A stretch of 64,000 bases of DNA from a virus, in IMG/VR virus record IMGVR_UViG_3300033407_000001, positions 7,824 through 71,823 of that record. One strand, written 5' to 3'. Positions 17,575-64,000 of this stretch are shown here, one piece after another. Position 1 is the first letter of the stretch. Each line of letters starts with the position of its first letter. The notes below the pieces were generated by a model. It saw only the letters and a list, made by a program, of their open reading frames with translations, had not been told where the DNA came from and searched no databases. A program made the position numbers and the translations under genes.

Positions 17575-17606
17575 TAGTAGGTAAACACCTCAGCTCTGCT
17601 GGAATT

Positions 17607-18440
17607 TCACCGTATAGGTCCGAAAATCGATTTTGGTCGTTTCCCACGTTTGTCCATGCCACGAATCTTATTCCCGTGTATGTGCGGCAACCTGGGCTTA
17701 ACTTTTTTGAGAAGGTCCCTCATGGCTTCAGATCGATCACCATCGTCGCTGCGCCCGGCACCCCATGACTTGGTTTCCATGCGACCGTCGATCGATGCAC
17801 ATGACTTCAGCGAGACCTGAATGCCTTTTGCAGACCTCCAGTCGTCCGACCTGACTCCGCAGTACAGTTCCCAGTCGAGATGCATACTCTCGACTTCATG
17901 GGCCAGGATATGGTCTATCCGACGACGACGATCATCCATCCATTCGAAGTGGAGCTTGCGCTCACGTATCCAGTGCTCCCAGCGTCTTGAGGCGTCGAAG
18001 TCTGAGATACGCATGGTTCGATCGGCCCACCAGGTCCAATCGACATCAACTTCGCCAGGGTACTCCCAGCTGCAGTTGTAGTAGTGAGGTGGCATAAGAT
18101 GGATACGGAAAGGCTGGTACGGGGCAATGCCATTCTCTAGCGCCCAGGTGGCGTTATGGCCTATACCTTCCTTGTCGTAGTGCGTGCTGCACTCAGTGGA
18201 GCCACCAAAATCGTAAATATCAGTACCAGCGTAGGATATCTCTTCCTCTAGCCACTCCGGGCGGGTGCCTTGTTCTTCGTTGGCGCACTCTTCTAGCAGA
18301 AGATCTGCCCCCTCTTCCGTGAAGAGGTACCAGATGTAGCATTCCTTCTCATCGTAGAAGTCAACGAGCCTGGGATTGGGCAGGCATGGTGGCCACCAAT
18401 ATTCATTGGCCCACTCTTCCGGGTTTTTAAGGAGATTCAT
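17607..18440 (-). CDS. Hypothetical Trp/Glu-rich protein
   Basis: 277-aa tiling ORF. Confidence 0.7.
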   Translation of the reverse strand: MNLLKNPEEWANEYWWPPCLPNPRLVDFYDEKECYIWYLFTEEGADLLLEECANEEQGTRPEWLEEEISYAGTDIYDFGGSTECSTHYDKEGIGHNATWALENGIAPYQPFRIHLMPPHYYNCSWEYPGEVDVDWTWWADRTMRISDFDASRRWEHWIRERKLHFEWMDDRRRRIDHILAHEVESMHLDWELYCGVRSDDWRSAKGIQVSLKSCASIDGRMETKSWGAGRSDDGDRSEAMRDLLKKVKPRLPHIHGNKIRGMDKRGKRPKSIFGPIR

Positions 18441-18593
18441 CGACGCTTACGGCTTTGCGAGTAGCCGCCCGGCATCTATAGGTGGCCATCGCTGCGTCTA
18501 CAGAGCTATACCGATCACCGCAGCTACAACATGTGTAATCTCTTGAAAACGAGGCCCACAGTAGACCACCACATATCATGTTCCGATTCTTGC

Positions 18594-18842
18594 TCATGAA
18601 AATTCATTATCCCGATCACCAATGAGTGCTTTCGCCGTCATCTTCTTCTGGAGGCTTGCATAGATGCGAGATGTTGACCTTAGGTCTACTGCGGCCTTGT
18701 CTAAATTTCGCATAGTATCCTCGGGTACGATCCCAGCACCATCAGCCCCACGGGCGCGGTATACAGCTGACTCCGCTGTATGATGAGCAAGTGAGGCAGC
18801 CAGAAGGTTGTCCATGGCTTTCTGTAATTCAGTCAGGCTCAC
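18594..18842 (-). CDS. Hypothetical protein
   Basis: Tiling ORF. Confidence 0.55.
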   Translation of the reverse strand: MSLTELQKAMDNLLAASLAHHTAESAVYRARGADGAGIVPEDTMRNLDKAAVDLRSTSRIYASLQKKMTAKALIGDRDNEFS

Positions 18843-19183
18843 TTTTTCTTCTTCTCCCTATCCTCTACAGCGCGGCCAAGTCGTTCCCTGAACTCCATTG
18901 CTTCGGGGCCGGAAAGAACTTCTGAAAGGAAGAATTGACCGACAGGGCTCCCTAGCCATTGAATGGCTGTATTGGCGACCAGCCAGTCTCGCTGCGAGAG
19001 CTGCGGATCAGGGATTCCCTTATTGGACTCATCCATGAGGTAGTCCAGGGTTGACTTGGCATTCACTGCCGACGGAGAAAATGAGCTGTTGATCGTCTGC
19101 CAAGCCTCGGCAAACCGTTTTTCGAGCGGATCACTGGCATAGCGATGTTTGCCCATGCCCTGGAATTGCTTTTTTATCTTCAT
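18839..19183 (-). CDS. Hypothetical protein; partial paralogue of 20457..20918
   Basis: Class-B promoter; shares RDWLVANTAIQWL / [13 protein letters not shown] motif with 20457..20918. Confidence 0.75.
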   Translation of the reverse strand: MKIKKQFQGMGKHRYASDPLEKRFAEAWQTINSSFSPSAVNAKSTLDYLMDESNKGIPDPQLSQRDWLVANTAIQWLGSPVGQFFLSEVLSGPEAMEFRERLGRAVEDREKKKK

Positions 19184-19215
19184 AATCGGTTAAACACTTC
19201 AAAGGCCTGATAATT

Positions 19216-19551
19216 TCAGGGATATCTGGCTTTCTTATCCTCTTTTTGTTTTTCCCTGTATTGACGCTGATATTCGCGACAGTCATTGCACATTTTCATG
19301 CCCCTAATCGCAGGGGCTTTCTTGCATTGCCTGCAAATCTGCTGGCGTGGACCGACCGATGGCGCATCCTTAGTCTGGTCTTCTTCTCGATACAGGATTA
19401 TGACTGCTCCGCAGTCTCGATCTGGCCCGGCATTACCAAGGGGGACACATCTGTCTATTTGGATATCCCCCTCGGCCTCAAGCCACTCATTGAGGCGGTC
19501 CTCGATAGCCTGGACGTTGGCCAGGTTATATGAGATCACTTTAGCCTTCAT
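19216..19551 (-). CDS. Hypothetical protein with C-terminal CxxC...CxxC
   Basis: Tiling ORF. Confidence 0.6.
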   Translation of the reverse strand: MKAKVISYNLANVQAIEDRLNEWLEAEGDIQIDRCVPLGNAGPDRDCGAVIILYREEDQTKDAPSVGPRQQICRQCKKAPAIRGMKMCNDCREYQRQYREKQKEDKKARYP

Positions 19552-19567
19552 CGCTGGCAGATCTGAC

Positions 19568-19912
19568 CTAGGTGTAGTTGCCGGTGGCTGGAGTTTCCTG
19601 TTTTTGCTCTTTTAGTTTATTTCTGATCCACTCATGCAGCATGGGAGCCTTGAACTCCCACCTGCTTGAGCCAATAGGAGCGATGATGTCTCGTTGAAAA
19701 TCTTGGTATAGATTCAGCGCCATATCATCACCGCAGAAGTCCGCGAGAATTGCCAACGCTAATTGACCGGAACCCGAACTCTCTAATCCCCATTCATAAC
19801 CAGTGTTCGACAGGGGTCGGATATCAGTGCGAGCTGGCAGCTCCACATTGTCGCAAGTCACAAGACATCCGTTTGGAGTCCTGAGACCTCGATAGCTAGC
19901 TTCTGCTTTCAT
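19568..19912 (-). CDS. DUF6166-like protein
   Basis: YEWG..SSGSGQLALAILAD motif. Confidence 0.6.
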   Translation of the reverse strand: MKAEASYRGLRTPNGCLVTCDNVELPARTDIRPLSNTGYEWGLESSGSGQLALAILADFCGDDMALNLYQDFQRDIIAPIGSSRWEFKAPMLHEWIRNKLKEQKQETPATGNYT

Positions 19913-26878: not shown

Positions 26879-26909
26879 ATCCAGTAAACACTTGAGCTGG
26901 TTGAGAATT

Positions 26910-27230
26910 TCACTCGGTGTCTTCTAAATCAAACATTGCATCGTATTTTTTGGCATTTTCTTTGACCTCAGCTATCTCCTCTTCGGTCCAGTATTTTTGA
27001 TGCCAGCCAGGGCCATTCTCATGCCCGTCTTCGTTGCGAAACCATAGCTCTCCACACAGGTCACAGTGGACGCCTTTGACCTCGGCGGGAATCTCCTCAA
27101 GGCTCATGCCATACCAGTCCACGTCATCCTGCGTGAACCGCCAGCCGTTACTATGACGGCAGGGCCCCTCATCTGCATAGCGAGGCATGGCGGGTACTAC
27201 GATATGGGTGTCGCCTGGTTTCACCCGCAA
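26910..27230 (-). CDS. Hypothetical protein
   Basis: Tiling ORF. Confidence 0.55.
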   Translation of the reverse strand: MRVKPGDTHIVVPAMPRYADEGPCRHSNGWRFTQDDVDWYGMSLEEIPAEVKGVHCDLCGELWFRNEDGHENGPGWHQKYWTEEEIAEVKENAKKYDAMFDLEDTE

Positions 27231-50406: not shown

Positions 50407-50441
50407 CTGAAATTCCGCATGAGCTGAGGTGTTTATTTACC

Positions 50442-50801: not shown

Positions 50802-50805
50802 GGAT

Positions 50806-50824
50806 AGGGGCTTCGGCCCTTTTC
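50806..50824 (+). terminator. Intrinsic terminator with cUUCGg loop
   Basis: AGGGGC-TTCG-GCCCTTTT. Confidence 0.75.
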
Positions 50825-50888
50825 CTATATATGGAAGAGTTTTCCTTGATAAGATGAAATTATGGGTTCACTCAGGTGTTTATAGACT

Positions 50889-51077: not shown

Positions 51078-51289
51078 TAGTAGAACAACCAGGCACCTGC
51101 CGCAGACGACCCTACAGAGATGATCAGAAGGACCCATGGCACTCGCCTCGGGTTCCTTCTCTTTGGCATTGGAGTGATCAGTCCTTGATGAATGCTTCTT
51201 TTATAGTCCACGGTTACTGAGACTCTCTATGACCATCATCCAATTGTCTAGAGTCTGAAATTCTGGCGGAGCTGAGGTGTTTACTAGAT

Positions 51290-51760: not shown

Positions 51761-52092
51761 TGATGTTACTTTGCTACCTGTTCCCACCCCTTGCTGTTCT
51801 GCTTATGGGTAAGCCGGTCAGCTCCCTCTTCAACGCTTTTTTGACCTTCGGGTGTTTCTGGATGCCCGGTGTGCGACATGCTCTCGCCTGCTATGTTGAG
51901 TATGCCGCCGACAAGAAGTTCACGAAGGTGGTGGACGCAATCAACGACCCGGCCCATGCTCGCAGAGGTGCGAAGTCAGGCCCAGACGGCGTGACCCATG
52001 TAACCAATAACTATTACGGTCAGGCTCCATCCAGTGGAGGCCATGACCCCGGAGTCGGTGCCAACGGCACGGTATTCCGCAGAAAATCGTAG
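51760..52092 (+). CDS. YqaE/Pmp3-family small membrane protein with C-terminal extension
   Basis: LLCYLFPPLAVLL.GK....N..LT...W.PG..HAL. Confidence 0.75.
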   Translation: MMLLCYLFPPLAVLLMGKPVSSLFNAFLTFGCFWMPGVRHALACYVEYAADKKFTKVVDAINDPAHARRGAKSGPDGVTHVTNNYYGQAPSSGGHDPGVGANGTVFRRKS

Positions 52093-52362
52093 GGGTAATG
52101 TTGCTCATTATAAATGTCGGGGGAGGGTGGTTCCTCCCCCGGCGCCCCGCTTAAGCAATGGAAAACTCTAAGAGTTTTCTTTGCCGCGCAAGCGCTTGCG
52201 CTGGTACGATGTGATTCCACCGGGGCGGATAACACGCACCCATATTGATCGGCCTGCTCGCTGGCTTCGATGGCGAGACTGCCTACCTATAGAACACCTG
52301 AGCCAGAGTGAAGTTTCTGCGTTTTCGCTGAAATTCTGCGAGAGCTGAAGTGTTTATGTACC

Positions 52363-53799
52363 GTGAGCAATTCAATCACCAACAAGAACCCTTCCTTTTC
52401 TCTTTCCGACGCACCCGTGGGTGAGGTCCTATTCGACGCGGCGCGGCCAAAGCCGCTCGCACAAGAGGTCATTCCTGAGCGTGATGGCTCTTGGAATTCT
52501 CCAGGCGTTTCCGCCGAGGGCGCCGCTCGCGCCAAAGAAGACGAGCAAGCTGCTACTGCTGCGGGCTTCACCGTCGCCCCGCCGATCTACGAGATTGGCT
52601 CCCTGGTCAATCAGACCGGAGTTGAGAATTTCCGCGCATCTCGCGAGGAGTTCGAGGCAATGCCTACCGCTTTTGAGGCGTGCAGCAAGCTGGCCGCGCA
52701 AGTCCAGGCCGAGCAACGTCGCGACATCGTTATCGAAGTTCCGAATCTTCGGATGCTCGATGATGGTCGCCTTACTCGCGGCACGGGTGCCGGCATGCCC
52801 ATGAGCGAACGTGCCATGACCGGCCTGGCAACCCATGTTACCCCCGGTGGTGGTGGGTACCTTCGGGAGTGCCCTACGGAGCTTCGCGCTCTCAACGTCA
52901 ATCACTGGTGTGAGAACGGGTATCGTGAAGATGTCCGCGCGACCAATCGACTCATGCGCGAGTGGCAAGAGCAGGGCTGCTTTGATGCTCAGCCCGCCCC
53001 GGTGATTGTCCCTCGCGAGATCACTCTTCGCACCCGTATCAACGGGTCCGATGGTCGCCGCGAGAATTTCGCCGTGGTCGGCCCTCGCTACTCTGCGCAT
53101 GACATTGACGCCATTGCCAATCAGGTGATGTCCAGCGAGGCGATTCCCGCCGATGCTCGCGCCAACGTCACCTATGACGGGTACCGCTCGCGCATTGACG
53201 TGCTGTTTCACAGCAATGTCCAGCCGGAGCGAGTCGTCGCTGGCGAGATTTTCAAGGCCGGAATCATGCTGAAGACTGCCGATGATGGCAGCGGTTCGAT
53301 TCAGATTGCTGCCCAGCTATGGCGCAACCTGTGTCTCAATCTCATCATTGTGGACCACGCCAGAGACATGGTGATGCGCCGCTCGCACCGTGGCGACGGA
53401 ATCGCCGATGCTGTCAATATTGGCATCCGGGACGCCATGAAGAAGGTGGAGTATTTCTGCCAAAAATGGAGCGAGGCAACCCTGGAGAACGTCCTGGAGA
53501 AGTACGGATGCGCCGATATCGAATCCGTGTTCCGTGGACTCATCTTCAACAAGGTGGTCAACATTGGTGGCGTTGCCCCCCAGGCCATGCACGCTCGCCT
53601 GATGAGGGCATGGGAAGCTGAGCCTGGCAATGACAAGACGGCTATCGTCAATGCCATCACTCGCTCGGCTCACACCGAGACCTGGAAGCGCTGGACCATC
53701 GTTGAGGAGCTTGAGACCCTCGGCGGGGCGATGCTCTTCGCCAAAGATTGGAAGGTGTCCATCCCTGAAAAGGTGGACCTGGCCAAGCTGGGCTACTAG
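52363..53799 (+). CDS. DUF932-like protein
   Basis: FAVVGPRY, LKTADDGSGSIQI...WRNLCLN; GTG start fixed by class-B promoter. Confidence 0.65.
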   Translation: MSNSITNKNPSFSLSDAPVGEVLFDAARPKPLAQEVIPERDGSWNSPGVSAEGAARAKEDEQAATAAGFTVAPPIYEIGSLVNQTGVENFRASREEFEAMPTAFEACSKLAAQVQAEQRRDIVIEVPNLRMLDDGRLTRGTGAGMPMSERAMTGLATHVTPGGGGYLRECPTELRALNVNHWCENGYREDVRATNRLMREWQEQGCFDAQPAPVIVPREITLRTRINGSDGRRENFAVVGPRYSAHDIDAIANQVMSSEAIPADARANVTYDGYRSRIDVLFHSNVQPERVVAGEIFKAGIMLKTADDGSGSIQIAAQLWRNLCLNLIIVDHARDMVMRRSHRGDGIADAVNIGIRDAMKKVEYFCQKWSEATLENVLEKYGCADIESVFRGLIFNKVVNIGGVAPQAMHARLMRAWEAEPGNDKTAIVNAITRSAHTETWKRWTIVEELETLGGAMLFAKDWKVSIPEKVDLAKLGY

Positions 53800-53916
53800 T
53801 CCAGGCGGGACGGCGGGGGCTCAGGCCCTCGCTTTTCCTTTGGTGCCATGAGTTTTCCGATTAGATCTGCCTGCGCTTTCGCTGAAATTCCATAGGAGCT
53901 GAAGTGTTTACTAGGC

Positions 53917-54123
53917 ATGAGCAACAAACAAAAATTCATAGTCGAGGTTAGGGAGGTCCACGTCGCGACCCACGAGGTTGAGGCCATGTCTGTCGATCAG
54001 GCCATCCACCTTGTGAAGCGAGGATTCTCGGAGGCGGTCGATACTGAGTACAGCCACACGCTCCCGGAGGGGACGTGGGTTGTCACGGATGACGATGGCG
54101 CCGTCCTGAAAGATCAGGAGTAG
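53917..54123 (+). CDS. Small hypothetical protein
   Basis: Class-B promoter. Confidence 0.75.
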   Translation: MSNKQKFIVEVREVHVATHEVEAMSVDQAIHLVKRGFSEAVDTEYSHTLPEGTWVVTDDDGAVLKDQE

Positions 54124-54127
54124 GACC

Positions 54128-54298
54128 ATGAGTGACTACAGAGCAAATCGCACCGCCGCCTTGCTTGTCTTTGGTGAGCATGTCACTGAGAAGCAAATCG
54201 AGAAAGCCCTGGCGACTTTGGAGCATTTGCTGGAGCGTGAGCCACGAGTCGAGGATTACGACAATCGGTATGCCGACCCGGTCCTCTACTTCCCATAG
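54128..54298 (+). CDS. Small hypothetical protein (56 aa, not in ORF track)
   Basis: ATG 4 nt after the previous stop; followed by a hairpin and GAGTTTTCC. Confidence 0.55.
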   Translation: MSDYRANRTAALLVFGEHVTEKQIEKALATLEHLLEREPRVEDYDNRYADPVLYFP

Positions 54299-54402
54299 CA
54301 GCCCTAAGCCGAAAGGCTTGGGGCTTTGCCCTATGGGCCTGAGTTTTCCTGTATCCTCGGCGGTTCGCTGAAATTCTGCGAGAGCTGAAGTGTTTATTGG
54401 CC

Positions 54403-54564
54403 ATGAGCAAGCAAACCATCAAGACCATTTCTCGCGTCGAGGTCATTCTCGCTAAGGCTAAGGCTCCCTGTGGAACCTATCCTGGCGCGAATCGCTCGCG
54501 CAAATTCGTGGACCGCAAGCGCAAGGCAAACAAGAATGCCTGTCGCGGCAAGGTGAAATTCTAG
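54403..54564 (+). CDS. Small basic protein (53 aa, not in ORF track)
   Basis: Class-B promoter; MSKQTIK...RKRKANKNACRGKVKF. Confidence 0.7.
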   Translation: MSKQTIKTISRVEVILAKAKAPCGTYPGANRSRKFVDRKRKANKNACRGKVKF

Positions 54565-54587
54565 CGTTGCTGAGGTGTTTATAATAT

Positions 54588-54884
54588 ATGAGCAACAAAC
54601 AAAATAACCCTGCCAACCCTACCGTCGAACTCGATGGCCTGGAAGTGGAAATCACCAGAGGTGTCGATGGCGCCCTGGTGGTATCTATCTCCGGTCCTGG
54701 TGATGACGACACGACCGCGCTCGGCTCGCCGGACATCCGTGTCTGGCTGAACGATGCCCTTATCTACGCCCACGGGGAGACCGGCGATGATCTGCAATGG
54801 ACGCCACCGACCGCGCCAGATCAGATTGTCGTCAATCCAGACCCGAGGGCGATCTCAAAGAAGCATTACGGAGATGACCAATGA
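54588..54884 (+). CDS. Hypothetical protein
   Basis: Class-B promoter. Confidence 0.75.
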   Translation: MSNKQNNPANPTVELDGLEVEITRGVDGALVVSISGPGDDDTTALGSPDIRVWLNDALIYAHGETGDDLQWTPPTAPDQIVVNPDPRAISKKHYGDDQ

Positions 54885-55222
54885 GTGAGCATCGAGAGAT
54901 CAATTGTCCCATTTGTCCTGGCCCGATATGTAAGCTGGACGGGAGCGTGGCCCCTGATTACGGGGATAAGGTCTACGTCTTGACCTACACTCACAAGCAC
55001 GGTGAAGATCATGCAGTCCATATAACCTATGAAGGTGCCCTCAAGGCGGCATATGCGCTGGCCGATGAGCGTGTCGATGAGTCCTGGTGTGATTCCGAGA
55101 ACGAGGCGAAATTCAAGGGGATTGAGGATAAGACAGCAGCCCTCGCCTTTTTCCATGACATCGAGAACGAGACCAGCTACGGGGAGATACTGGAGATCTA
55201 CGAAACGCCACTGAGGGACTAG
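54881..55222 (+). CDS. Hypothetical protein
   Basis: ATGA-coupled to the upstream gene. Confidence 0.7.
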   Translation: MSEHREINCPICPGPICKLDGSVAPDYGDKVYVLTYTHKHGEDHAVHITYEGALKAAYALADERVDESWCDSENEAKFKGIEDKTAALAFFHDIENETSYGEILEIYETPLRD

Positions 55223-55325
55223 TTCCCTCGGCCCTTCGGGGCCTATGTATTGGAAAACTCTATGAGTTTTCTACTATTAGCAACAGAAAGTCGCCAAGGG
55301 AGATGATCTCCCCGGCGACTTGGCA

Positions 55326-55679
55326 CTACTGTGCGGCTTGGTTTTCGACTGCTTTCCGTGGCTTCGCGAGGCGACGCAAGCGGTCTTTCGCAGCCGAGGT
55401 GAGACGATATTGGCCGTCTCCGATCTCCTCGGGATGCTCAATCCACTTGGCTTTCACCAGGCGACGAACGGTGTTGCGAACTCGTGAATTTGCCTTGGCT
55501 TTGCCGAGGCCCTTCCATTTACATTCAACGATCAGTTCTTTGATGGTCAAGATGGGGCGGCCTGGTTTGGCGAGCGCTTTAACGATTTTCAGTTCGTTGT
55601 CGCTTAGCTCCGAGTAGTGGAGCTTCAGCTCCCCCCCTCGCTGCCCTTGCTTCGATTTCAGCTCGGTTTGTTTACTCAT
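55326..55679 (-). CDS. Winged-helix DNA-binding protein (paralogue of 56049..56750)
   Basis: SRVRNTVRRLV...IGDGQY; class-B promoter. Confidence 0.72.
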   Translation of the reverse strand: MSKQTELKSKQGQRGGELKLHYSELSDNELKIVKALAKPGRPILTIKELIVECKWKGLGKAKANSRVRNTVRRLVKAKWIEHPEEIGDGQYRLTSAAKDRLRRLAKPRKAVENQAAQ

Positions 55680-55920
55680 AATTCATAAACACCTATTGGT
55701 TCTCATAATTTCACAATCATTGAGGAATTATAAAAAGTCTAACATTATTACGGCTCTAGTCAATGCAAAGTACAGATCGAGGCTACTTTATTTTTACAGG
55801 CTCATTTAACCCACAGCCTGTGGACATAAAAAAATAGATCTCCGGTAACATTACTAGTTTGAGAAACCTTCAATGAAGTCAACGCAGTTAGATCTTTATC
55901 CACAGATACATCCACAATGC
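55680..55920. promoter_or_regulatory. AT-rich region with DnaA-box-like 9-mers (candidate origin or control region)
   Basis: TTATCCACA at 55896-55904; near-boxes at 55807, 55819 (reverse) and 55908; two TAGATCT. Confidence 0.4.
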
Positions 55921-56048
55921 CTCGTTTTTGCTGGACAAATAGGTGCCTGGATTTTGTTGACCACGATCTCTGGCTGATGCTAGGTAGGTTCTCGGGAGAT
56001 AGTCCGCCGGATACTGAAATTCTGTCGGTTCTGAGGTGTTTACTGAAC

Positions 56049-56750
56049 ATGAGCAAGCAACTGCATGTCATTGATAATGGTGTGGTATTCAACTCTGGGC
56101 AGAGGGGTAAGCCTCTCGATTTAGAGTTCAGCCAACTGAACAAGGATGAGCAGGCTGTTTTGCAGACGCTCCGCCAGTCCGGGGATCGAATGAAGATCAT
56201 ATCCATCATGGAGGCGCTCGAATGGGACATCCCAGTTGTGCCGTTCTCGCCAGAGTATTGCAAAGTCAAAGGGTATAGCAGGGTTCGCAACGCTGTGCGG
56301 CGCCTTGTTCGCTCTGGGATGATCATGCACAGTAGTGCCATTGGTGACGGAACCTATATGGTTCCCGATATCGTTCCGGTTGCTACCATTGCCCCGGTCA
56401 AGCTCTTGCCGGTTGCCAATCCCCTGCCGGTTGACATCGATAGCATCACCAAAAGGGCCATGGCGGCTGGCAGGAAGAGTGACTGTGCATTCTACAATGC
56501 CTGCCTAGATCAGGCTATCAGTAACAAATGGGATGGTTTCTCGTGCCATGGATGTAGGGCTTACGCTGAGCCCGATGAGTTCCAGAAGGAACAGAACATT
56601 CTTGGGCTTCGCGCCGTTCAGACAGCCGCAGATCTGGTGGCCAAACATGGCAAGGTCAACCGGATTCGTGGCGTGAAGCCTGGCGCAGATGCAAAGCGTA
56701 ACTCCGGCGAGATGGTGAGTCTGTCTGAAGTCATGGCGATGACGGACTAG
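56049..56750 (+). CDS. Winged-helix protein with C-terminal Cys-cluster domain
   Basis: SRVRNAVRRLV...IGDGTY; C..Y..C...SCHGC; class-B promoter. Confidence 0.75.
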   Translation: MSKQLHVIDNGVVFNSGQRGKPLDLEFSQLNKDEQAVLQTLRQSGDRMKIISIMEALEWDIPVVPFSPEYCKVKGYSRVRNAVRRLVRSGMIMHSSAIGDGTYMVPDIVPVATIAPVKLLPVANPLPVDIDSITKRAMAAGRKSDCAFYNACLDQAISNKWDGFSCHGCRAYAEPDEFQKEQNILGLRAVQTAADLVAKHGKVNRIRGVKPGADAKRNSGEMVSLSEVMAMTD

Positions 56751-57015
56751 CTACAGCTGGGGCAATCGTCCGAGCTTGAGATAGAAGATCCCGCATATCG
56801 CAACGACGAGCACTGCCCAGAGGATCTTCTTCGACTTGGTGATCTGAACATTGGGAAGATAGGCATCTATCAGGCTTCCCAGCGACCATCCAAGTAGGCC
56901 GCTGAGCAGGGATATAATGATCAGTCGAGTATCTGGATCCATAGTGGATCCTTTTACCCTTGGGGATCTGAAAACTCTATGAGTTTTCCTGTCTTGGGCC
57001 GGAGGCCGCGATGGC

Positions 57016-57270
57016 TCAGCTCTCAACGGGGGAGATGATGATTTTCACCAGGATGAGGTCAAGGTCATCAAGGTCATCTCCATAGATTTCCTCTTCTTTG
57101 CACATACCAAGGTGTTCTTTGGCTTCCTCGGGTGTGTCAAACAGATGATCGAATGGGTGCTCATATCTCATGGGATCGTCCAGGGGTATGACGTAAAGTG
57201 GTTGGCCATCGCCACAGACAAGCTGGCGATAGGCATAGTGTGTAGTTGATGGCTGTTTTGCATTGCTCAT
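57016..57270 (-). CDS. Hypothetical protein
   Basis: Class-B promoter (divergent pair). Confidence 0.75.
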   Translation of the reverse strand: MSNAKQPSTTHYAYRQLVCGDGQPLYVIPLDDPMRYEHPFDHLFDTPEEAKEHLGMCKEEEIYGDDLDDLDLILVKIIISPVES

Positions 57271-57348
57271 GGCTGGTAAACACCTCAGCTAGCCCAGAAT
57301 TTCAGTGAATTGTCTGAAATTCTATCGGCTCCCAGGTGTTTACTAAAC

Positions 57349-57984
57349 ATGAGCAATGCAATCGACAACAAGAGTATCGTCCGCGACCTTCGCAATGATA
57401 CCGTGGACGTTCAGTCCCGGCACATCGACTGGGCAGCAACACTCGGCGAAGACCTGGAGGGCTGGGAAGCCTTCGAGGCTGTTGATTGCGACGAGTGCGA
57501 CCGGGTCACGGTCCTTACAACGGCCATGGGTGGCGATGAGCATCGCTACATTGAGCCAGAGTTTGAGAATGAAGACGGCGAAGTGGTCGAGAATGAGTGC
57601 ATGGGGCATCTCTACTTTGAAGGCCCAATGATGAATAGCTTTTACCCTTGCCCCTTCAACGATACCGACGAAGCGGCACGGGCGATTGCCAGCCTTCCCC
57701 TCTGTGTGATTGTCCTGCAAGACGGCGAGACCGGCTTTGCCCTCACGGGTGGCGGCATGGACTTGAGCTGGGAGATTTGCGACGCCTACATCCGTTGCGG
57801 TTTCCTTCCCCCATTCCAGTTCTGTTGCCTACCAGACATGGCCGGCAAAGACAGGGAGAGCCGAACTCAGCTCATTCTCACAGCCTGCCAGCGCACAGCC
57901 GATGTCCGGGGGAGCCAAGCCGAGTACCGCCGCATCGAACTTAAGCAGATGGCTACCAAGTACAAGAATCCAAACGCCGCGTAA
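57349..57984 (+). CDS. MGE-type hypothetical protein (LTGGGMDLSWEI..AY motif)
   Basis: Class-B promoter. Confidence 0.8.
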   Translation: MSNAIDNKSIVRDLRNDTVDVQSRHIDWAATLGEDLEGWEAFEAVDCDECDRVTVLTTAMGGDEHRYIEPEFENEDGEVVENECMGHLYFEGPMMNSFYPCPFNDTDEAARAIASLPLCVIVLQDGETGFALTGGGMDLSWEICDAYIRCGFLPPFQFCCLPDMAGKDRESRTQLILTACQRTADVRGSQAEYRRIELKQMATKYKNPNAA

Positions 57985-58160
57985 ACGGCGAGTGGTTGCT
58001 CTAGGTGGCCGGGGAATTCTCCTCGGCCACCGTTTTTGCGTGTGCTCCGATCGGAAAACTCTATGAGTTTTCCTTGTGACAGAAAAGAACTGCCCCCCAA
58101 GGCTATGCTGAACACAACGGCCGAATTGCCACTGATTCAACCCTGGAGGGCAGAAAAGCT

Positions 58161-58580
58161 TTATGAACAGTTGACTGGACAAAAGAGGCCAGAGCTGTAG
58201 CGCCCCGACTGGTATTCCACCCGGTCTGCTGGCATGGCCACAAGTCTTTCAGGGCCATTCTCGCCGGCTATTGTGCCAATTTCAACACAATAGCCATAAT
58301 CATACTCTTTGGGAGCGCGAGTGCGCAGGAGCCCATATTTCTTAGAGTGGTCGATGACCTGCCATTTGCCACTCTTGCCACCGTCGCCAAATAGTGAGCG
58401 GAGACGTTGCTCCATCTCAAAGTAGCCTGGCGATGTCGTTGCCATCGCCTTAGAGGAGAAGGCGCCATCATATCGGCCCAGTTCGCCGATTTCTTGCAGA
58501 GCCCGTACTGTGCTCATATGAACATCAGCGCTTGCTATGAGTGCCTCCTGGTCAATTTCAAATCTGATTATTCTGAACAT
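58161..58580 (-). CDS. Hypothetical protein
   Basis: Class-B promoter; start MFRII. Confidence 0.75.
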   Translation of the reverse strand: MFRIIRFEIDQEALIASADVHMSTVRALQEIGELGRYDGAFSSKAMATTSPGYFEMEQRLRSLFGDGGKSGKWQVIDHSKKYGLLRTRAPKEYDYGYCVEIGTIAGENGPERLVAMPADRVEYQSGRYSSGLFCPVNCS

Positions 58581-58658
58581 GCATAGTAAACACTTCAGGA
58601 ATCTGAAAATTTCAGCAGATTCTTTGAAATTACACAAAGGCTGAGGTGTTTACTGGGC

Positions 58659-59024
58659 ATGGGCAATAGAGCCCACCCGAATCAACCGGCCCCGCGAGGG
58701 TGTCCGACCGAAAGTAGGTTGCTGATGTTTGTGATGGATGGGGATGTAATCCCGGTTAGTCTTGATGAGTCGATTGATCGAATCGTTGCCTTACAGAATG
58801 AGCGCAAGCTCCTGAATGCGAAGATCGACAATCTCAAAGCAGTGGCAAAGCTTCACTTGAAGAAGCTTGAGGTCACTGAGTACGAAGCGCCCTCTGGCCA
58901 CTCTGCGAAGTATTCGTCTAAGCAGATGCCAAAGTATGACAAGGAGGCAATCCTTGAGCTTACAGGTGAGGACTTCGCCCTCTGTGTGAGCTTCACGAAC
59001 GTCACAGCGTTCACGGTCAAGTAG
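58659..59024 (+). CDS. Hypothetical protein
   Basis: Class-B promoter. Confidence 0.72.
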   Translation: MGNRAHPNQPAPRGCPTESRLLMFVMDGDVIPVSLDESIDRIVALQNERKLLNAKIDNLKAVAKLHLKKLEVTEYEAPSGHSAKYSSKQMPKYDKEAILELTGEDFALCVSFTNVTAFTVK

Positions 59025-59124
59025 GCCAGTCAGGCGGGGAGAGATCCCCGCCCTCTTTGCTTGTGTGACATTGGAAAACTCAATGAGTTTTCCGACTCCC
59101 CGGCGAGGCCGAGGCCCCGAAGGG

Positions 59125-59586
59125 TTAGGCCCATACGATGAGCCTGTCACCTGCCCGCTCGCACGTTGCTAGCAATTGCTCGCAGCGCTGGCGGAGATAG
59201 CCGCCCTCGCGTCCCATGGTGATGAATCGATCCGAGTTCTCAAGGCCCATGGACTCGGCCCGCTCGTCATTGCTCATGGGAGCATCGTGGTTGCGCTCCA
59301 CGTCCCACAGACGACGGCGCAGCATTGGTGCCAGTTCTTTGGCAGGAATCTCCCCACAGTAGTCAACCGTGAGATTGAGCCAGCGCAAGAGATCGAGCGC
59401 GTTGCCATTGGCCATGTTGATCTCCGCATCGCAGATATCACACGAGTACATTTCTGGTGTGTCCTGGTCAAGCTTCCAGGCAGCATCGCAATCGTCGCAC
59501 CATCGGCGCGAGCAATCACAGGACTCAGCGGGCTCAGTGTAGCCCTTGGACTCGTTCTTGACTCCGATGAAGAATGTTATGCTCAT
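59125..59586 (-). CDS. Hypothetical Cys-rich protein
   Basis: Class-B promoter; hairpin after the stop. Confidence 0.78.
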   Translation of the reverse strand: MSITFFIGVKNESKGYTEPAESCDCSRRWCDDCDAAWKLDQDTPEMYSCDICDAEINMANGNALDLLRWLNLTVDYCGEIPAKELAPMLRRRLWDVERNHDAPMSNDERAESMGLENSDRFITMGREGGYLRQRCEQLLATCERAGDRLIVWA

Positions 59587-59664
59587 ATATTGTAAACACC
59601 TCAGCTCTTGCAGAATTTCAGCGAATAGTCTGAAATTCCAGCTGCCCTCAAGTGTTTACTAGGC

Positions 59665-60180
59665 ATGAGCACAATAACCGCACGATACGTCGATACCTGT
59701 CTGTCTGATTACCTTCAGGACAGTTACTCTCGCCCAGGCCAGGCTCTTTGCCTTGCATCTCTTGGGTGTTCCATTGAGCAGACCGTTGAGGAGTTGCTCA
59801 ATTCCCTTGATGATTCCGACAGCGGGTTCCCTGAGACCATCGGCAACGATGAGATCAAGGAGGTACTGGCCGAGGCTATTGAGGCTATCGATCTCCGTTA
59901 CATCGATGAGAACGGCAACCGATGCCAGACTCCTCCCGAGGAAGATCGTGATTGCGAGGAGCCGATGCTCTATGTCCTCATTGAGTGGGATGCCAGTGTG
60001 GTCAAGCTCCGCATGACCGTCGATGTCGAATACCAAGCGAATGGAGTGGACTCGTATGAACTCAAGCTCATGCTTGAAGATGCGATCCGCCAGGCCTCGG
60101 CCAATGGTGCTCTTACTGGCGGCACGGGTGCCACCGTAACATCATGGGGAGCGAGCGCCGAGGTAGTACCCGAGGAGTAG
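59665..60180 (+). CDS. Acidic hypothetical protein
   Basis: Class-B promoter; UUCG hairpins at 60181-60200. Confidence 0.8.
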   Translation: MSTITARYVDTCLSDYLQDSYSRPGQALCLASLGCSIEQTVEELLNSLDDSDSGFPETIGNDEIKEVLAEAIEAIDLRYIDENGNRCQTPPEEDRDCEEPMLYVLIEWDASVVKLRMTVDVEYQANGVDSYELKLMLEDAIRQASANGALTGGTGATVTSWGASAEVVPEE

Positions 60181-60200
60181 CCCTTCGGGGCTTCGGCCCC
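60181..60200 (+). terminator. Overlapping UUCG hairpins followed by the GGAAAACTC palindrome
   Basis: CCCTTCGGGG / GGGGCTTCGGCCCC; no U-tract. Confidence 0.55.
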
Positions 60201-60286
60201 CCTGGGAATTGGAAAACTCTAAGAGTTTTCCGACCTACGCAAACGCTTGCGCGGCGAGGAGTTACCCTGCCGCGCAGCCCGCCCGC

Positions 60287-60697
60287 CTATTCCTTGAGTA
60301 GCGCATTGCATTTGTCGCAATTGGCAACGAAGTGCCGATCGAGCCAGGCAACAGTTTCGCCCTGTGTCTCATTGCCGCACAGTGGCAAGCTATCGTTGTC
60401 CATGTCGGGTATATGGCGCGGAGCGTCATATACTTCGACTCGGAAATAGCCCTCGGGGTCAATCCAAACGTCAACAGGGCTGGAGAGTGTCCCGCAGGTA
60501 TCTGTTTCCTCAATTTTCTCAAGCACGGTTTCGGCAGTCAAGAATTGAGGTTCACACCCGAACACCTCACGGGCTAGCTCGGCGTAGCGTTCTTCAGGCA
60601 TGGCGTTGATCGCCTGCTCGACCGTGAATGGTCGTTCCTGGCTGAACTCGTCGTCGGAGATGAAGAATTCGGGGCTGAATGATAGTGAGTAGCTCAT
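60287..60697 (-). CDS. Hypothetical protein
   Basis: Class-B promoter. Confidence 0.78.
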   Translation of the reverse strand: MSYSLSFSPEFFISDDEFSQERPFTVEQAINAMPEERYAELAREVFGCEPQFLTAETVLEKIEETDTCGTLSSPVDVWIDPEGYFRVEVYDAPRHIPDMDNDSLPLCGNETQGETVAWLDRHFVANCDKCNALLKE

Positions 60698-60818
60698 ATA
60701 TAGTAAACACTTCAGGACTTACGGAATTTCAGTAAAAGATCAGCAAACGCAGTGCTTTATGAGTTTTCCAATTCGGAACGCAAAAACCGCCCCGAAGGGC
60801 GGCGCGGTCTGGCTCCTG

Positions 60819-61034
60819 CTATGCTGGGAGTAGCAGATGGCCCTGTTTGCGAATCTTCCCAGCTTCCACCAGGGTTCCGACGATGGTATTGAACTGCTCA
60901 AGAGAGCATCCGATGCCCATGAGAGTCGCGTACAGATGGCCGGCTGGTAGGCCCTGCTCGCCCAATTCCTCGACTGTTTCAACAATTGCCGAGGCGATTG
61001 CCATGAGTGCTTTGATTGCTTGTGTGTTGCTCAT
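60819..61034 (-). CDS. Small winged-helix-like protein
   Basis: G.LYATLMG..CSLEQFNTIVGTLVEAGKI; class-B promoter. Confidence 0.7.
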   Translation of the reverse strand: MSNTQAIKALMAIASAIVETVEELGEQGLPAGHLYATLMGIGCSLEQFNTIVGTLVEAGKIRKQGHLLLPA

Positions 61035-61112
61035 ATTATGTAAACACTTGGGGACTGATAGAATTTCAGCGAAAAGAGTGAAATTCTAGCCTGGCTGGCG
61101 TGTTTATTAACC

Positions 61113-61697
61113 ATGAGCAAAACCACCAAAACCATCCGAATCCGCCTCGATGATGATGCTGAGTCGCCGCGTGAATATGCCGGCGAATTCAGCACCATGG
61201 CTTGCTGGCACAACCGTTACAACCTTGGCGACGTACAGCCCCGCGAAGAGCCGCAAGAATGGCTCAAGGAGAATGCGCCCAAGGGCTCCGTGGTTCTTTG
61301 CCTGTATCTCTACGATCACAGCGGAATTACCATGAGCACTGGCCCGTTTTCTTGCGGCTGGGATTCTGGCCCTGTTGGCTACATTGTGTCAACGCCAGAG
61401 CAGATTCGCGCAACCTTTATGGTCAAGCGTATCACCAAAAAGATTCGTGAGCAGGTCACGAAGAATCTCGAAAATGAGGTCAAGGTTTACGCGGAATATC
61501 TCGAAGGCAATGTCTATGGTTTTGAAATCATTGAGACAACCGAGTGTGACTCATGCCAACACGGGGAGCCAGAAGTGATTGACTCGTGTTGGGGATTCAT
61601 TGGCAACGATTGGGCGCTTGAAGCTATGGCCGACCATATCGACCCGGAGCTTCGCCCTCAGCTTGAGCAGGCTTGGGAAAATAGGTTCGACGGCTAG
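61113..61697 (+). CDS. Conserved phage hypothetical protein (SPRE...H.RY.LGD; YLYDHSG...WDSG motifs)
   Basis: Class-B promoter. Confidence 0.82.
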   Translation: MSKTTKTIRIRLDDDAESPREYAGEFSTMACWHNRYNLGDVQPREEPQEWLKENAPKGSVVLCLYLYDHSGITMSTGPFSCGWDSGPVGYIVSTPEQIRATFMVKRITKKIREQVTKNLENEVKVYAEYLEGNVYGFEIIETTECDSCQHGEPEVIDSCWGFIGNDWALEAMADHIDPELRPQLEQAWENRFDG

Positions 61698-61791
61698 GCC
61701 CTTCGGGGCTGCGGCCCCAGGTCGCCTGAGTTTTCCTGTAAGAGAATGAGATCTCAGTGAAATTCCACAAGAGCTGAGGTGTTTACTAGAT

Positions 61792-62097
61792 ATGAGCAAC
61801 ACCGACGAACAGCAAGAAACAATCGAAGAAGAGGCACGCCAGATCATGGTGGAGATCCTCTATCATCACTTCGGCGATGATTTCATTACATCGGATCGCG
61901 TTGACGGTTCAGTCTGCGGCGGAGATCCGCACGGATGGACTCAGGGCGCGGTGGCAACAATTCTCACTGAGAGCTGCTTGCCAGATCCGGTCTATGGTCC
62001 TGTTGAGGCATGGTGCCGAGTATTCGAGGATGCTGCCGAGCGTGGCCTACACTGCGAGCCAATCAATGGGGCGGTGATCGGAGTCTACCCCCTCTAA
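61792..62097 (+). CDS. Hypothetical protein
   Basis: Class-B promoter. Confidence 0.78.
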   Translation: MSNTDEQQETIEEEARQIMVEILYHHFGDDFITSDRVDGSVCGGDPHGWTQGAVATILTESCLPDPVYGPVEAWCRVFEDAAERGLHCEPINGAVIGVYPL

Positions 62098-62189
62098 GGG
62101 AAGGGGCTTCGGCCCTGTTTGCCCTGAGTTTTCCTTGAACTTATTGATTCACAGCTGAAATTCTAGCGCTTCTGAAGTGTTTACTAGAT

Positions 62190-62435
62190 ATGAGCAACAC
62201 CGGAAATCAATTCAGACTTATCGATCGTGGCAGCGGAGCATGGTCCGCTATCCTGAAGCGTAAGGCTGGAAGCCTTGCCGTACGGGTCATCACCGAACAG
62301 GGTGGCTATCGCATCGACTTTACCAAGAGCGTCGGCGCGGCTTGGCAACCCTGGGAGCCTATCGCGACCACTGTCTTTTCTACCTTCGACGAAGCCGAGA
62401 AGGCTCTACGAAGTTCTGTTACCGGGCTCCTGTAA
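62190..62435 (+). CDS. Hypothetical protein
   Basis: Class-B promoter; UUCG hairpin at 62440. Confidence 0.75.
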   Translation: MSNTGNQFRLIDRGSGAWSAILKRKAGSLAVRVITEQGGYRIDFTKSVGAAWQPWEPIATTVFSTFDEAEKALRSSVTGLL

Positions 62436-62576
62436 CTGCAGGGGCTTCGGCCCTTGTGCGAATTGGAAAACTCTATAAGTTTTCCTGCCTGCACAGTAAA
62501 AAGAGCGAGGGGATTGGACTTTGTACACTCGGGCCGGAGCCACTCGGACATAGTACACACACCCCTCACTCAAAAC

Positions 62577-62777
62577 CTACTCGGCGGCAGCTTGCTCCTC
62601 TTCGCGGTCCCGGCACAATTCCTCGAATTGCTCTTCGGTGTATTTGAACTGCGAGCAGAGGTCGCGCAAGTCCTGGTCATCTTCACAGATGAGAAGGTCT
62701 CGGTAAAGGTGCTCAGTATTGAGGACATGGAGGCTCAGCTCTTGTTCCCCGTACATTGTGATGTCTATCTTGCTCAT
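62577..62777 (-). CDS. Small acidic protein
   Basis: Class-B promoter (divergent pair). Confidence 0.75.
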   Translation of the reverse strand: MSKIDITMYGEQELSLHVLNTEHLYRDLLICEDDQDLRDLCSQFKYTEEQFEELCRDREEEQAAAE

Positions 62778-62855
62778 ATTCAGTAAACACCTCAGCTCGC
62801 CTAGAATTTCAGCGAATTGTCTGAAATTCTATCGGCTCCCAGGTGTTTACTAGAT

Positions 62856-63680
62856 ATGAGCAACACAAAACAATTTGGTGAGTCCGGTGTCTGGCGCGGC
62901 TGGGTTGAACTCGGCGGCGATATCAACTGGGAGGAGCATGGCGGCAAGTGGTGTCGCAAAGATCCGAATCTTTCTCGCGTGTTCTACGTGATTGAGCATA
63001 TGAATCTCGTTGAGTGCATGGGCGAGCGCGATGTCGAGGCCGGCGGCCTTGATAAATACGTGAGTAGCATCTCACGGATCGATCTCGATGAGATCCCGGA
63101 GTCTGAAGTGGAATCCGCGCTTGAGTCATGCGGCATCGAACTCGCCAACTATGACAGCGACGAGACTGATCTTGTTGTCGTTGAAGCTCTCACGGGCTAC
63201 GGATGCGCGGCCCCCATGGGAGAGTATTCAGATCCATCCTATCCCGAGCGGTCACGGGCGGCAGCAAGGCGCGAAGTCGAGGAGCTTATCGCCGATTCCG
63301 TCAAGTGCGAGGATATGCTTGACCGGCCAGTGAATGCCATCGGTTCCACGGCCAGGGACTTCGGCCAGGGTAACATCATGGCGGGGCTTGACCGATACAA
63401 GGTGGAGCAAGAGACAAGGGCTCTGAAGGTCCGACTCAAGAGGGTTCCCAGCGATGACCCGATTGCATTCGCTCATGGATTCCAGACGGGTTGCGCTGGC
63501 GGTGCATTCCCCGCCGATGAGAGTGACCTGGCCCCAGAATGGCTCAGAGGGCATGAGCTTGGGCTTAAGGTCCGCAACGGTGACGAGGACATTCGCGAGC
63601 TGAATCACTGGGTAGAGCCGGATACGAGCAACACCTCCATGGATCTCATGGTCAAGCTGCAAAGCGCGGCAAGAAACTAA
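62856..63680 (+). CDS. Acidic hypothetical protein
   Basis: Class-B promoter. Confidence 0.8.
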   Translation: MSNTKQFGESGVWRGWVELGGDINWEEHGGKWCRKDPNLSRVFYVIEHMNLVECMGERDVEAGGLDKYVSSISRIDLDEIPESEVESALESCGIELANYDSDETDLVVVEALTGYGCAAPMGEYSDPSYPERSRAAARREVEELIADSVKCEDMLDRPVNAIGSTARDFGQGNIMAGLDRYKVEQETRALKVRLKRVPSDDPIAFAHGFQTGCAGGAFPADESDLAPEWLRGHELGLKVRNGDEDIRELNHWVEPDTSNTSMDLMVKLQSAARN

Positions 63681-63685
63681 ACACT

Positions 63686-63720
63686 CGGCGGGGGTCGGAA
63701 TTGCCGGCCCCCGCCGTTTT
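63686..63720 (+). terminator. Intrinsic terminator, possibly bidirectional
   Basis: CGGCGGGGGTCGG-AATTG-CCGGCCCCCGCCG-TTTT between convergent genes. Confidence 0.75.
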
Positions 63721-63762
63721 GCTGTACAGAATAGGAAAACTCTAAGAGTTTTCCTTCCCGCG

Positions 63763-63933
63763 CTACCGCCGCCAGTTCTCCTTGACTTGTTCCCATGCCT
63801 CAATCAGCTCGGCTTCGGCTTGTTCCATCTTAGCCCATGAGCGCTGGACCATTGGGTCATTCTCAACTTCATAGACGATAGACCAAAATATGCGGCGAAC
63901 CTTCCAGTAAAGAAGGAGAACGAAGTTACTCAT
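63763..63933 (-). CDS. Small hypothetical protein
   Basis: Class-B promoter; start MSNFVLL. Confidence 0.65.
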   Translation of the reverse strand: MSNFVLLLYWKVRRIFWSIVYEVENDPMVQRSWAKMEQAEAELIEAWEQVKENWRR

Positions 63934-64000
63934 AGTATGTAAACACTTCAGAACCCATGTAATTTCAGGCATTGTTAACTACCGATTTCATTGATGTATT

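Follow-up and report, generated by a model that had tools for sequence, protein, structure and literature searches.

Why do several dozen genes of one virus begin exactly six nucleotides downstream of the same bipartite sequence? The question is raised by IMG/VR record IMGVR_UViG_3300033407_000001, a 199,636-bp virus contig from a soil phage of roughly 200 kb, of which bases 7824–71823 were analyzed as one stretch of 64,000 nt (the window; positions refer to it unless contig coordinates are named). Within this stretch, the motif TGAAATT-N13-RGTGTTTA stands directly before start codons. Our analysis favors the view that its copies are promoters for a phage-encoded sigma factor of the extracytoplasmic function (ECF) type, which would give rise to leaderless mRNAs of early and middle genes; on balance, we regard this combined explanation as probable.

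The contig has linear ends and, according to CheckV, a completeness of 92%. A search for sequencing runs containing this DNA returned a single DNA run, a soil metagenome that is probably its source, and listed no RNA run. The genes of the contig include those for a T4-type portal and a prohead protease, and its nearest cultured relatives, at about 35% identity, are Flavobacterium phage immuto and Microcystis phage Mel-JY01. About 40 tRNAs and one tmRNA are present, and a release factor also belongs to the translation toolkit. A megablast comparison of the region 47–64 kb with a phage collection returned no match.

Survey of the motif

The motif was searched with up to two mismatches, and the expectation was derived from shuffled sequences. 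The window contains 38 matches, compared with 0.18 expected (the largest value in any shuffle was 2), and 35 of them are exact. We accept 37 as genuine copies, spanning positions 17582 to 63967; two of these are variants, one reading GGCGTG (61079–61106) and one reading TGAAACT...CATGTG (32740–32767). The remaining match, a two-mismatch look-alike on the minus strand at 63678–63705, was discarded, being part of a 13-bp G+C terminator stem and lacking a start codon at the expected offset. Six further copies just outside the window bring the total to 43, all of them at contig 25–106 kb and all oriented toward an open reading frame (ORF). In 41 of the 43 copies (35 of the 37 in the window), 6 nt separate the motif from the start codon; the two copies at 17582 and 19191 have 7 nt. 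The start codon is ATG in 42 cases (36 in the window) and GTG in a single one, at 52363. When the copies are aligned from about -40 to +8, the conserved positions read C-TGAAATT-CT...CTGA-R-GTGTTTA-C...Y-ATG-AGC-AA, so that conservation reaches into the first three codons of the motif genes. The tetranucleotide GAGG, which precedes TG in the second half of the motif, occurs in about half of the copies, and the others have GAAG, CAGG, CAAG, GGCG, CATG or GATG in its place. Five pairs of copies are arranged back to back, with the TGAAATT boxes 10 bp and the ATGs 78 bp apart.

An earlier note on this DNA, made from the sequence without database searches, had counted 36 copies; its motif and geometry stand, and the number is now 37. 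Its description of copies on both strands, 6 nt from the start codon, with N7 twice and GTG once, was reproduced in full, as was the highest density of copies at 47–64 kb. The note also stated that most of the genes start with ATGAG(C/T), in line with a second codon AGC in 29 of 43 genes and a serine in 32 of 43. Likewise, its argument that the embedded GAGGTG is not required as a Shine-Dalgarno (SD) sequence agrees with the lack of GAGG in about half of the copies.

Probable promoter function and predicted start of transcription

Judged from the arrangement of the sequence, the motif very probably functions as a promoter. Counted from the A of the ATG, TGAAATT (-34 to -28) would represent the -35 element and GTGTT(TA) (-13 to -7) the -10 element. 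With 6 nt between the end of the latter and the start codon, transcription is predicted to begin at the A of the ATG or within one or two bases of it. A leader of at most two bases is thus likely, to judge from this distance and from the pyrimidine at -1 and the A at +1. A C or T occupies position -1 in 41 of the 43 copies, compared with 46% of other genes, and +1 is an A; pyrimidine at -1 and A at +1 form the start dinucleotide preferred by bacterial RNA polymerase.

Such mRNAs would be translated by direct binding of the ribosome at the 5' AUG, aided by an unstructured, A/C-rich start (ATGAGCAAC...). The folding energy of positions +1 to +35 has a median of -1.7 kcal/mol, against -4.1 kcal/mol in other genes (p = 9e-10), and the A+C content of the 5' coding ends is 68% compared with 53%. 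Where the second codon encodes serine, it is AGC in 29 of 32 cases, whereas AGC makes up 22% genome-wide. Known determinants of leaderless initiation are the accessibility of the start codon, a leader length of zero and the identity of the AUG (PMC8459731), and a CA-rich sequence downstream of the AUG enhances it (PMC9031893). The motif genes show the combination expected of leaderless mRNAs, namely an AUG (42 ATG, 1 GTG) at an accessible, unstructured 5' coding end, and they also lack an SD sequence at functional spacing. SD cores (GGAG/GAGG) of the other genes of this genome peak 6–8 nt from the ATG. The general upstream profile of the non-motif genes, which came from crude gene calling, was noisy, and distances were read from promoter-anchored histograms in its place. 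Not one of the 43 motif genes has an SD core at 3–10 nt; among other genes the share is 27%, and among late genes it is 42%. The GAGG of the motif lies 12 nt from the ATG, and in just 19–21 of the 43 copies.

Could transcription start at some other promoter further upstream? The 78 bp between the ATGs of the five back-to-back pairs leave no room for another promoter. Tandem and divergent copies have no common sequence upstream of the motif, which excludes a shared promoter there. The region 47–64 kb contains about 30 genes in both directions; sigma70-like promoters occur in it at chance level (12 versus 11.2 expected), whereas terminator-like sites are enriched (34 versus 14.4 ± 3.1 expected). 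The motif is hence the sole recurrent candidate promoter of this region.

Two other readings were tried and given up. RNAalifold finds no consensus fold among the copies (mean z relative to shuffles -0.13) and the window contains no match to an Rfam family; the motif is on these grounds not regarded as an RNA element. An archaeal reading, with TATA box and B recognition element, was dropped because T4-like head genes, bacterial-type tRNAs and tmRNA, SD-led late genes and sigma factors of the sigma70 family indicate a bacterial host.

Conservation in related phages

For comparison we used a contig from ENA (L016), found through a homolog of the sigma factor described below, and 15 contigs obtained by scanning JGI metagenomes with a generalized pattern. 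Their coding regions are 67–84% identical to those of the present phage at the nucleotide level. Of 60 distinct motif hits in these relatives, 55 are followed by a start codon at a distance of exactly 8 nt from GTGTT (52 ATG, three GTG); the other five are look-alikes, and start codons at different offsets do not occur. What is retained is TGAAATT-N14-GTGTT-N8-ATG, while the two bases after GTGTT, the six before the ATG, the spacer and GAGG all vary. The position of GAGG is often taken by GGCG, CAGG, GAAG or CATG, and GTGTT is constant. An offset that stays fixed while the intervening sequence drifts indicates that selection acts on the two boxes and on their distance from the start codon. In three copies (L106:~129, L107:~327 and L107:~2430), the gene begins with ATGATGAGCAAC; these copies have gained an additional ATG codon, yet the first ATG still stands at the usual distance from the promoter, so that the constraint seems to apply to the first AUG.

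In IMG/VR, the exact motif is found in only three contigs with a single copy each, which corresponds to the chance level, and searches of the same database with the first sigma factor and with a motif-driven SNF2 helicase retrieved no relatives. Contigs with multiple copies were found among the relatives only.

Two ECF-type sigma genes and the geometry of ECF promoters

The earlier note likened the bipartite motif to ECF or phage-encoded sigma promoters and recommended a search for a phage sigma factor or RNA polymerase outside the window. Two ECF-type sigma genes indeed lie just beyond its end. Sigma 1 (162 aa; contig 71890–72378, plus strand) starts 67 nt past the end of the window, and sigma 2 (180 aa; contig 76832–77374), a paralog with 29% identity to sigma 1, is encoded 5 kb beyond it. 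Sigma 1 matches TIGR02937 over its full length with 46.3 bits (cut-off 42.9) and Pfam Sigma70_r2 (PF04542, region 2) above the cut-off; sigma 2 reaches 37.8 bits with TIGR02937, also over the full length. A phmmer search of sigma 1 against PDB sequences found nothing. The AlphaFold model of sigma 1 (mean predicted local distance difference test score, pLDDT, of 77) comprises two helical domains, with residues 79–96 as a disordered linker between them. The top 50 Foldseek matches of this model are nearly all ECF sigma factors, aligned over 150–168 columns with E = 0.01–1, and include sigmaH, sigmaL and sigmaE of M. tuberculosis as well as CnrH, SigK, SigW and E. coli sigmaE; sequence identity to the solved ECF sigma factors is just 9–21%. 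Sigma 1 thus fits the architecture of an ECF protein, in which the domains sigma2 and sigma4 make up fewer than about 200 aa and regions 1.1 and 3 are lacking.

In two respects the motif itself follows the plan of an ECF promoter: two gene-directed boxes at fixed spacing (~16–19 bp in such promoters), here with a gap of 13/14 nt in 43 copies and about 55 more in relatives, and candidates for a cognate sigma factor at hand, with two phage genes inside the motif cluster. Its geometry is close to the sigmaH/sigmaE consensus. Read as TGAAA-N18-GTT, and with the A of the ATG as +1, the motif has TGAAA at -34 to -30 and GTT at -11 to -9; mapped promoters of sigmaH and sigmaE have the form GGAAT/C-N18-19-GTT, with T/C at -31 (PMC10012870). 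Aligning the two predicts a transcription start at the A of the ATG or at the preceding base, and the pyrimidine at -1 favors the former. ECF promoters have a -35 box of the GGAAC/GGAAT type, with an AAC/AAT core, and a -10 box with a core of the CGT/GTT type. Compared with the GGAAT/C box, the first G is a T in TGAAA(TT), and the C/T position is an A or a T depending on the register.

Both sigma genes have a promoter of their own, which is sigma70-like and also abuts the ATG. That of sigma 2, TTGACC-N16-TATAAT-N6-ATG, is near-consensus and is kept in a relative as TTGACT-N17-CATAGT-N6-ATG; that of sigma 1 reads TTGAAT-N17-GATAAA-N6-ATG, and the start codon of this gene is GTG in one relative. 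Both genes and their placement in the motif cluster are conserved in the relative, and in one relative sigma 2 and its neighbor gene are inverted with respect to this contig. A protein identical to sigma 1 is on record from a 286.8-kb contig; the true genome may therefore exceed the 199.6-kb record. A late-promoter motif that could be assigned to sigma 2 was sought by eye upstream of the structural genes, where we observed no single shared motif, just TTGACA-like boxes with leaders.

Several observations weigh against this explanation. GAGGTG is a good complement of the anti-SD sequence in about half of the copies, and a spacing of 12 nt is long, not impossible. A GTG start, as in one copy, supports leaderless translation poorly in E. 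coli, though it works in mycobacteria. The Pfam models of region 4 (Sigma70_r4, r4_2), taken alone, match neither sigma factor, and the Foldseek E-values (0.01–1) are weak. TGAAATT and GTGTTTA are not textbook ECF boxes: the AAC position holds an A where a C would be expected, and aligning GAAAT to GGAAT makes the spacing 1–2 nt shorter. Finally, the motif is absent upstream of both sigma genes, and ECF sigma factors often autoregulate.

According to the model that we propose, RNA polymerase with one of the two phage ECF-type sigma factors would recognize the motif; that the reader is a phage sigma factor seems to us somewhat favored, given the genes in the cluster and the type of promoter. 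Host sigma70 polymerase would first transcribe genes of a TTGACA class, both sigma genes among them. One phage sigma would then read the 43 TGAAATT/GTGTT promoters, producing monocistronic leaderless mRNAs that end at hairpin/GAGTTTTCC terminators, and the late genes would follow as SD-led operons. Early to middle expression, after that of the sigma genes by host sigma70, is the most likely timing of the motif genes. The earlier note had postulated a dedicated alternative-sigma promoter with +1 on the ATG, a proposal that all computational tests support, with the start site as a prediction.

Alternative explanations

Promoter and start site could be as described and the reader a different one, either an alternative (stress or ECF) sigma factor of the host or sigma70 redirected by a phage appropriator that binds TGAAATT. 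T4 provides a precedent, since MotA and AsiA redirect host sigma70 at middle promoters. The motif is missing upstream of both phage sigma genes, the assignment to a phage sigma is based on proximity and promoter type only, and extended -35-like elements are also in use in this phage, as is evident from a second conserved box upstream, TTGACAATTG. Yet two ECF-type sigma genes are located in the motif cluster and are co-conserved with it in relatives, GTGTT lacks the TAnnnT character and would be a poor -10 element for sigma70, and the exact motif is restricted to this phage lineage (the three hits in IMG/VR are at chance level). We therefore consider a host sigma factor or an appropriator unlikely. 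An improbable alternative is that the motif is mainly a transcribed 5' untranslated region, i.e. a translation cassette in which GAGGTG serves as an SD sequence at a long but fixed spacing, and that transcription starts upstream or in the TGAAATT part. GAGGTG pairs with the 3' end of 16S rRNA in 19–21 of the 43 copies, the G at -14 is more constant in the closest relative, and the late genes show that the host uses SD sequences. However, half of the copies in this phage have other bases in place of GAGG, and at least eight copies of the relatives have GGCG there, whereas GTGTT and TGAAATT stay constant; the 12-nt spacing falls outside the 6–8 nt SD peak of the genome. Such a cassette would need a promoter that neither the divergent and tandem copies, with no common upstream sequence, nor the sigma70-type sites, which are not enriched, provide; conserved RNA structure was not found, and the pyrimidine at -1 would be left without a role.

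The conserved block with its hairpin/GAGTTTTCC element could primarily be a recombination site that moves cassettes, with a promoter role that is secondary or absent; a variant sees the motif as the operator of a phage repressor. The exchange could proceed by homology, as with the promoter early stem-loop (PeSL) elements discussed below, or be carried out by the small tyrosine recombinase that is expressed under one motif copy. Genes have been replaced, relocated and inverted in comparison with a relative, with breaks at motif and terminator borders, a 190-aa gene of the Phage_integrase family is under one copy, and conservation extends into the first three codons. Recombination alone, however, fails to explain the orientation toward ORFs, the invariant offset, the pyrimidine/A dinucleotide and the match to ECF promoter geometry. 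Furthermore, typical operators and recombinase cores are built from repeats, whereas the two boxes do not repeat each other in either direct or inverted form. As a primary function, we hold recombination or repressor binding to be very improbable; as an added role, recombination is compatible with promoters read by a phage sigma factor and does not replace them.

A second class of putative promoters abutting the ATG

Promoter-like sequences of the TTGACA type share the habit in this phage. The sequence TTGACAATT occurs 27 times in the contig, and 15 of 132 TTGACA sites have the ATG of an ORF 29–30 nt downstream, against about one for each other distance bin; this distance equals 17 + 6 + 6–7 nt. 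In the relatives, 11 TTGACA sites have an ATG at 29 nt. An SD sequence is present in 2 of 33 members of the TTGACA class. One form of this class, TTGACAATTG-N2-3-GATATAKG-...-ATG, is located on the minus strand at 39607–44588 and also at 8783, 10768, 25519 and 36060, with the ATG 28–31 nt after TTGACA and no SD sequence. Within the cluster at 39.6–44.6 kb, GATATAKG is conserved between the -35 box and a weak -10 region. The TTGACAATTG element is also found directly upstream of the TGAAATT motif copies at 44138–44165 and 44898–44925. The common geometry of the two classes indicates that the abutment of promoter and ATG is a general habit of the non-late genes; the late structural genes are operonic and have SD sequences at normal spacing.

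Terminators and the exchange of cassettes

The terminator module of the cassettes extends from 45431 to 63754 and takes two forms. Palindromes of the form GGAAAACTC-N2-3-GAGTTTTCC, flanked by G+C hairpins, lie between convergent genes, for example at 47323, 52161, 55253, 56970, 58054, 59074, 60212 and 63735. The other form, a G+C hairpin followed by TGAGTTTTCC, precedes tandem motifs by about 20 nt (49036, 49333, 49855, 50837, 53850, 54341, 61728 and 62126). Of 49 occurrences of the 8-mer arms GAGTTTTC and GAAAACTC, 48 are located at contig 53–77.5 kb. Each copy of the motif would thus belong to a self-contained cassette of terminator hairpin, promoter, start codon and small gene. In comparison with L016, the genes between conserved motif copies have been replaced, relocated or inverted, and homology stops at the borders of motif and terminator. 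The conserved ends of the cassettes may double as points of homology at which related phages swap genes, as PeSL elements do. As in PeSL, a stem-loop precedes the promoter, and the unit is repeated between small ORFs of a plastic region and marks insertions and deletions. The sigma70-type early promoter and the SD sequence that also define PeSL are missing, the boxes here being unlike those of sigma70 and only 6 nt separating the -10 box from the ATG. The cassette works like a PeSL and stands outside the strict definition.

A perfect 16-bp palindrome, GCGCAAGCGCTTGCGC, was noticed at 12 sites of the contig, in all modules and often just past gene ends. In the window, its 12-mer core starts at 9749, 24442, 36453, 40910 and 52188. 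Candidate roles are those of a terminator, a binding site for a protein or a target of a nuclease.

Motif copies and the genes behind them

Nine scattered copies, identified by the motif search, lie on the minus strand in the replication and recombination module (17582 to 44925). These are 17582–17609 and 19191–19218 (both N7), 26885–26912, 32740–32767 (the TGAAACT variant), 33725–33752, 36414–36441, 38191–38218, 44138–44165 and 44898–44925. The copy at 33725–33752 precedes the 190-aa tyrosine recombinase mentioned above (ORF 33146–33718, minus strand; Phage_integrase family, 84 bits), a possible actor in the movement of cassettes.

Twelve tandem copies on the plus strand follow between 47504 and 54581, each 6 nt before a start codon. 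They begin at 47504 (before a HerA-like ATPase of 422 aa), 48791, 49067, 49363, 49884, 50408, 50855, 51256, 52329 (GTG start; 478 aa with a weak match to DUF932), 53883, 54369 and 54554. Two copies face outward 301 bp apart in the segment 55686–56042, one at 55686–55713 (minus) and one at 56015–56042 (plus).

The five back-to-back pairs come next. The first (57277–57342) separates ORFs 57016–57270 (minus) and 57349–57984 (plus), the second (58587–58652), with the same 10-bp geometry, ORFs 58161–58580 (minus) and 58659–59024 (plus), and the third (59593–59658) ORFs 59125–59586 (minus) and 59665–60180 (plus). After a single minus-strand copy at 60704–60731, which precedes ORF 60287–60697 (136 aa), the fourth pair (61041–61106) lies between ORFs 60819–61034 (minus) and 61113–61697 (plus); its plus-strand member is the GGCGTG variant, without an SD-like GAGG. 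Two tandem copies on the plus strand (61758–61785 and 62156–62183), each preceded by a G+C hairpin and TGAGTTTTCC, are followed by the fifth pair (62784–62849), between ORFs 62577–62777 (minus) and 62856–63680 (plus). The final copy of the window (63940–63967, minus strand) serves ORF 63763–63933 and diverges from the sigma 1 gene. One of the motif-driven genes encodes the SNF2 helicase used as a query above.

Translation factors and neighboring elements

The window also encodes a translation initiation factor, IF3 (5305–5838, minus strand; IF3_C, 111 bits). Its gene has an ATG start with GGAG 7 nt upstream and overlaps the stop codon of the preceding ORF, i.e. it is SD-led and coupled. The protein shares about 50% identity with the IF3 proteins of many phyla, and Acidobacteriota recur among the best hits, which makes it uninformative with respect to the host. 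High levels of IF3 inhibit leaderless translation (PMC9031893). A two-mode scheme can be imagined in which leaderless early and middle genes are expressed from the two classes of ATG-abutting promoters and late genes are SD-led, with accumulating phage IF3 as the switch that shuts off the leaderless class; we regard this scheme as a doubtful one.

One of three tRNA-Met(CAT) genes (L006:2768–2838, minus strand; contig ~149.8 kb) has the GGG/CCC anticodon stem of the initiator type together with a paired 1:72 position and an odd D arm. Extra initiator tRNA boosts leaderless translation.

A CRISPR array occupies positions 1–780 and extends upstream to contig ~6320, with about 32 copies of a 36-nt repeat at a period of 72–73 nt. 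It adjoins a gene for a 673-aa protein (782–2803, minus strand) with a Cas12f1-like TNB domain and a TnpB-like PHROG match; array and protein together look like a phage-borne type V system. A lone copy of the repeat lies far from the array, at ~45050–45090 on the plus strand (contig ~52880–52915), just before the motif-rich region.

Relation to known systems and implications

Phage ECF-like sigma factors with cognate promoters, leaderless phage mRNAs and PeSL cassettes are all known already; cI of lambda is an example of the second. Phage phiEco32 encodes gp36, an ECF-family sigma factor that serves middle and late promoters (PMC12276001), and a similar system has been predicted for Salmonella phage 7-11 (PMC4331800). 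These phages resemble the present one in that a lytic phage has its own small ECF-like sigma factor, expressed from host-type promoters, and a phage-specific promoter repeated before many genes; a GT-rich, -10-like element is common to the 7-11 consensus tgTGATGTTATA and to GTGTTTA. In phiEco32, however, the promoter is a single 9-bp element (TAATGTATA) with no conserved -35 box, present about a dozen times before middle and late genes that have leaders, whereas here it is bipartite, occurs in 43 copies, mostly before small genes of presumed early or middle expression, abuts the ATG, and is accompanied by two paralogous sigma factors.

PeSL and PmSL elements are composite terminator-promoter cassettes of T4-type phages (PMC2839356, PMC4122927). 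Common to them and to the cassettes described here are a stem-loop before a conserved promoter and start codon, the location between small ORFan genes of a plastic region in a phage with T4-like head genes, and the coincidence of the units with indels and gene replacements between close relatives. The promoters of PeSL and PmSL, in contrast, are of the sigma70 type (TTGACA-N17-TATAAT) or have a Mot box and are followed by an SD sequence; those of this phage are ECF-like and leave no space for a leader or SD.

Leaderless transcription on a large scale has been described for Thermus phage phiYS40, whose middle and late transcripts are leaderless as summarized in a review (PMC3594737), and in Deinococcus-Thermus the -10 regions are adjacent to ORFs (PMC12340547). 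The likeness is a -10 element a few bases before the ORF, with leaderless mRNA, predicted in the present case, as a genome-wide mode of expression. Those promoters are read by the primary sigma factor of the host (TAnnnT), and leaderless genes are the norm in its phylum. The present phage differs in its alternative-sigma-type promoter, SD-led late genes and an IF3 gene of its own; phiYS40 is reported to raise IF2 and lower IF3 (PMC3594737). Actinobacterial promoters of sigmaH, sigmaE and sigmaR are similar in having two boxes, GAA in the -35 box, GTT at about -11 to -9 and a comparable spacing, but the sigmaH promoters listed lie 30–207 nt from start codons (PMC10012870), whereas here the distance is fixed at 6 nt and the -35 box reads TGAAATT.

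Distinct here are the scale of 43 copies, the organization into cassettes of presumed early/middle ORFan genes instead of late operons, the arrangement of copies back to back, a PeSL-like shuffling array with terminators of its own, the two classes of ATG-abutting promoters, the two sigma factors and the phage IF3. If the proposed explanation is true, the 43 near-identical promoters of defined geometry, with two candidate sigma factors and matched terminators, would form a phage regulon of leaderless transcripts that ranks among the largest and cleanest outside the Thermus and actinobacterial systems, and the motif would supply exact start codons for dozens of ORFan genes, which gene callers may misplace. 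Sigma factor, promoter, leaderless start and terminator would make up a compact, orthogonal expression kit for synthetic biology. Given the phage IF3, infection by this phage would also be a natural test bed for the balance between leaderless and SD-led translation. Finally, the idea behind PeSL, that regulatory cassettes serve as recombination handles, would be extended from sigma70 promoters to those of phage sigma factors.

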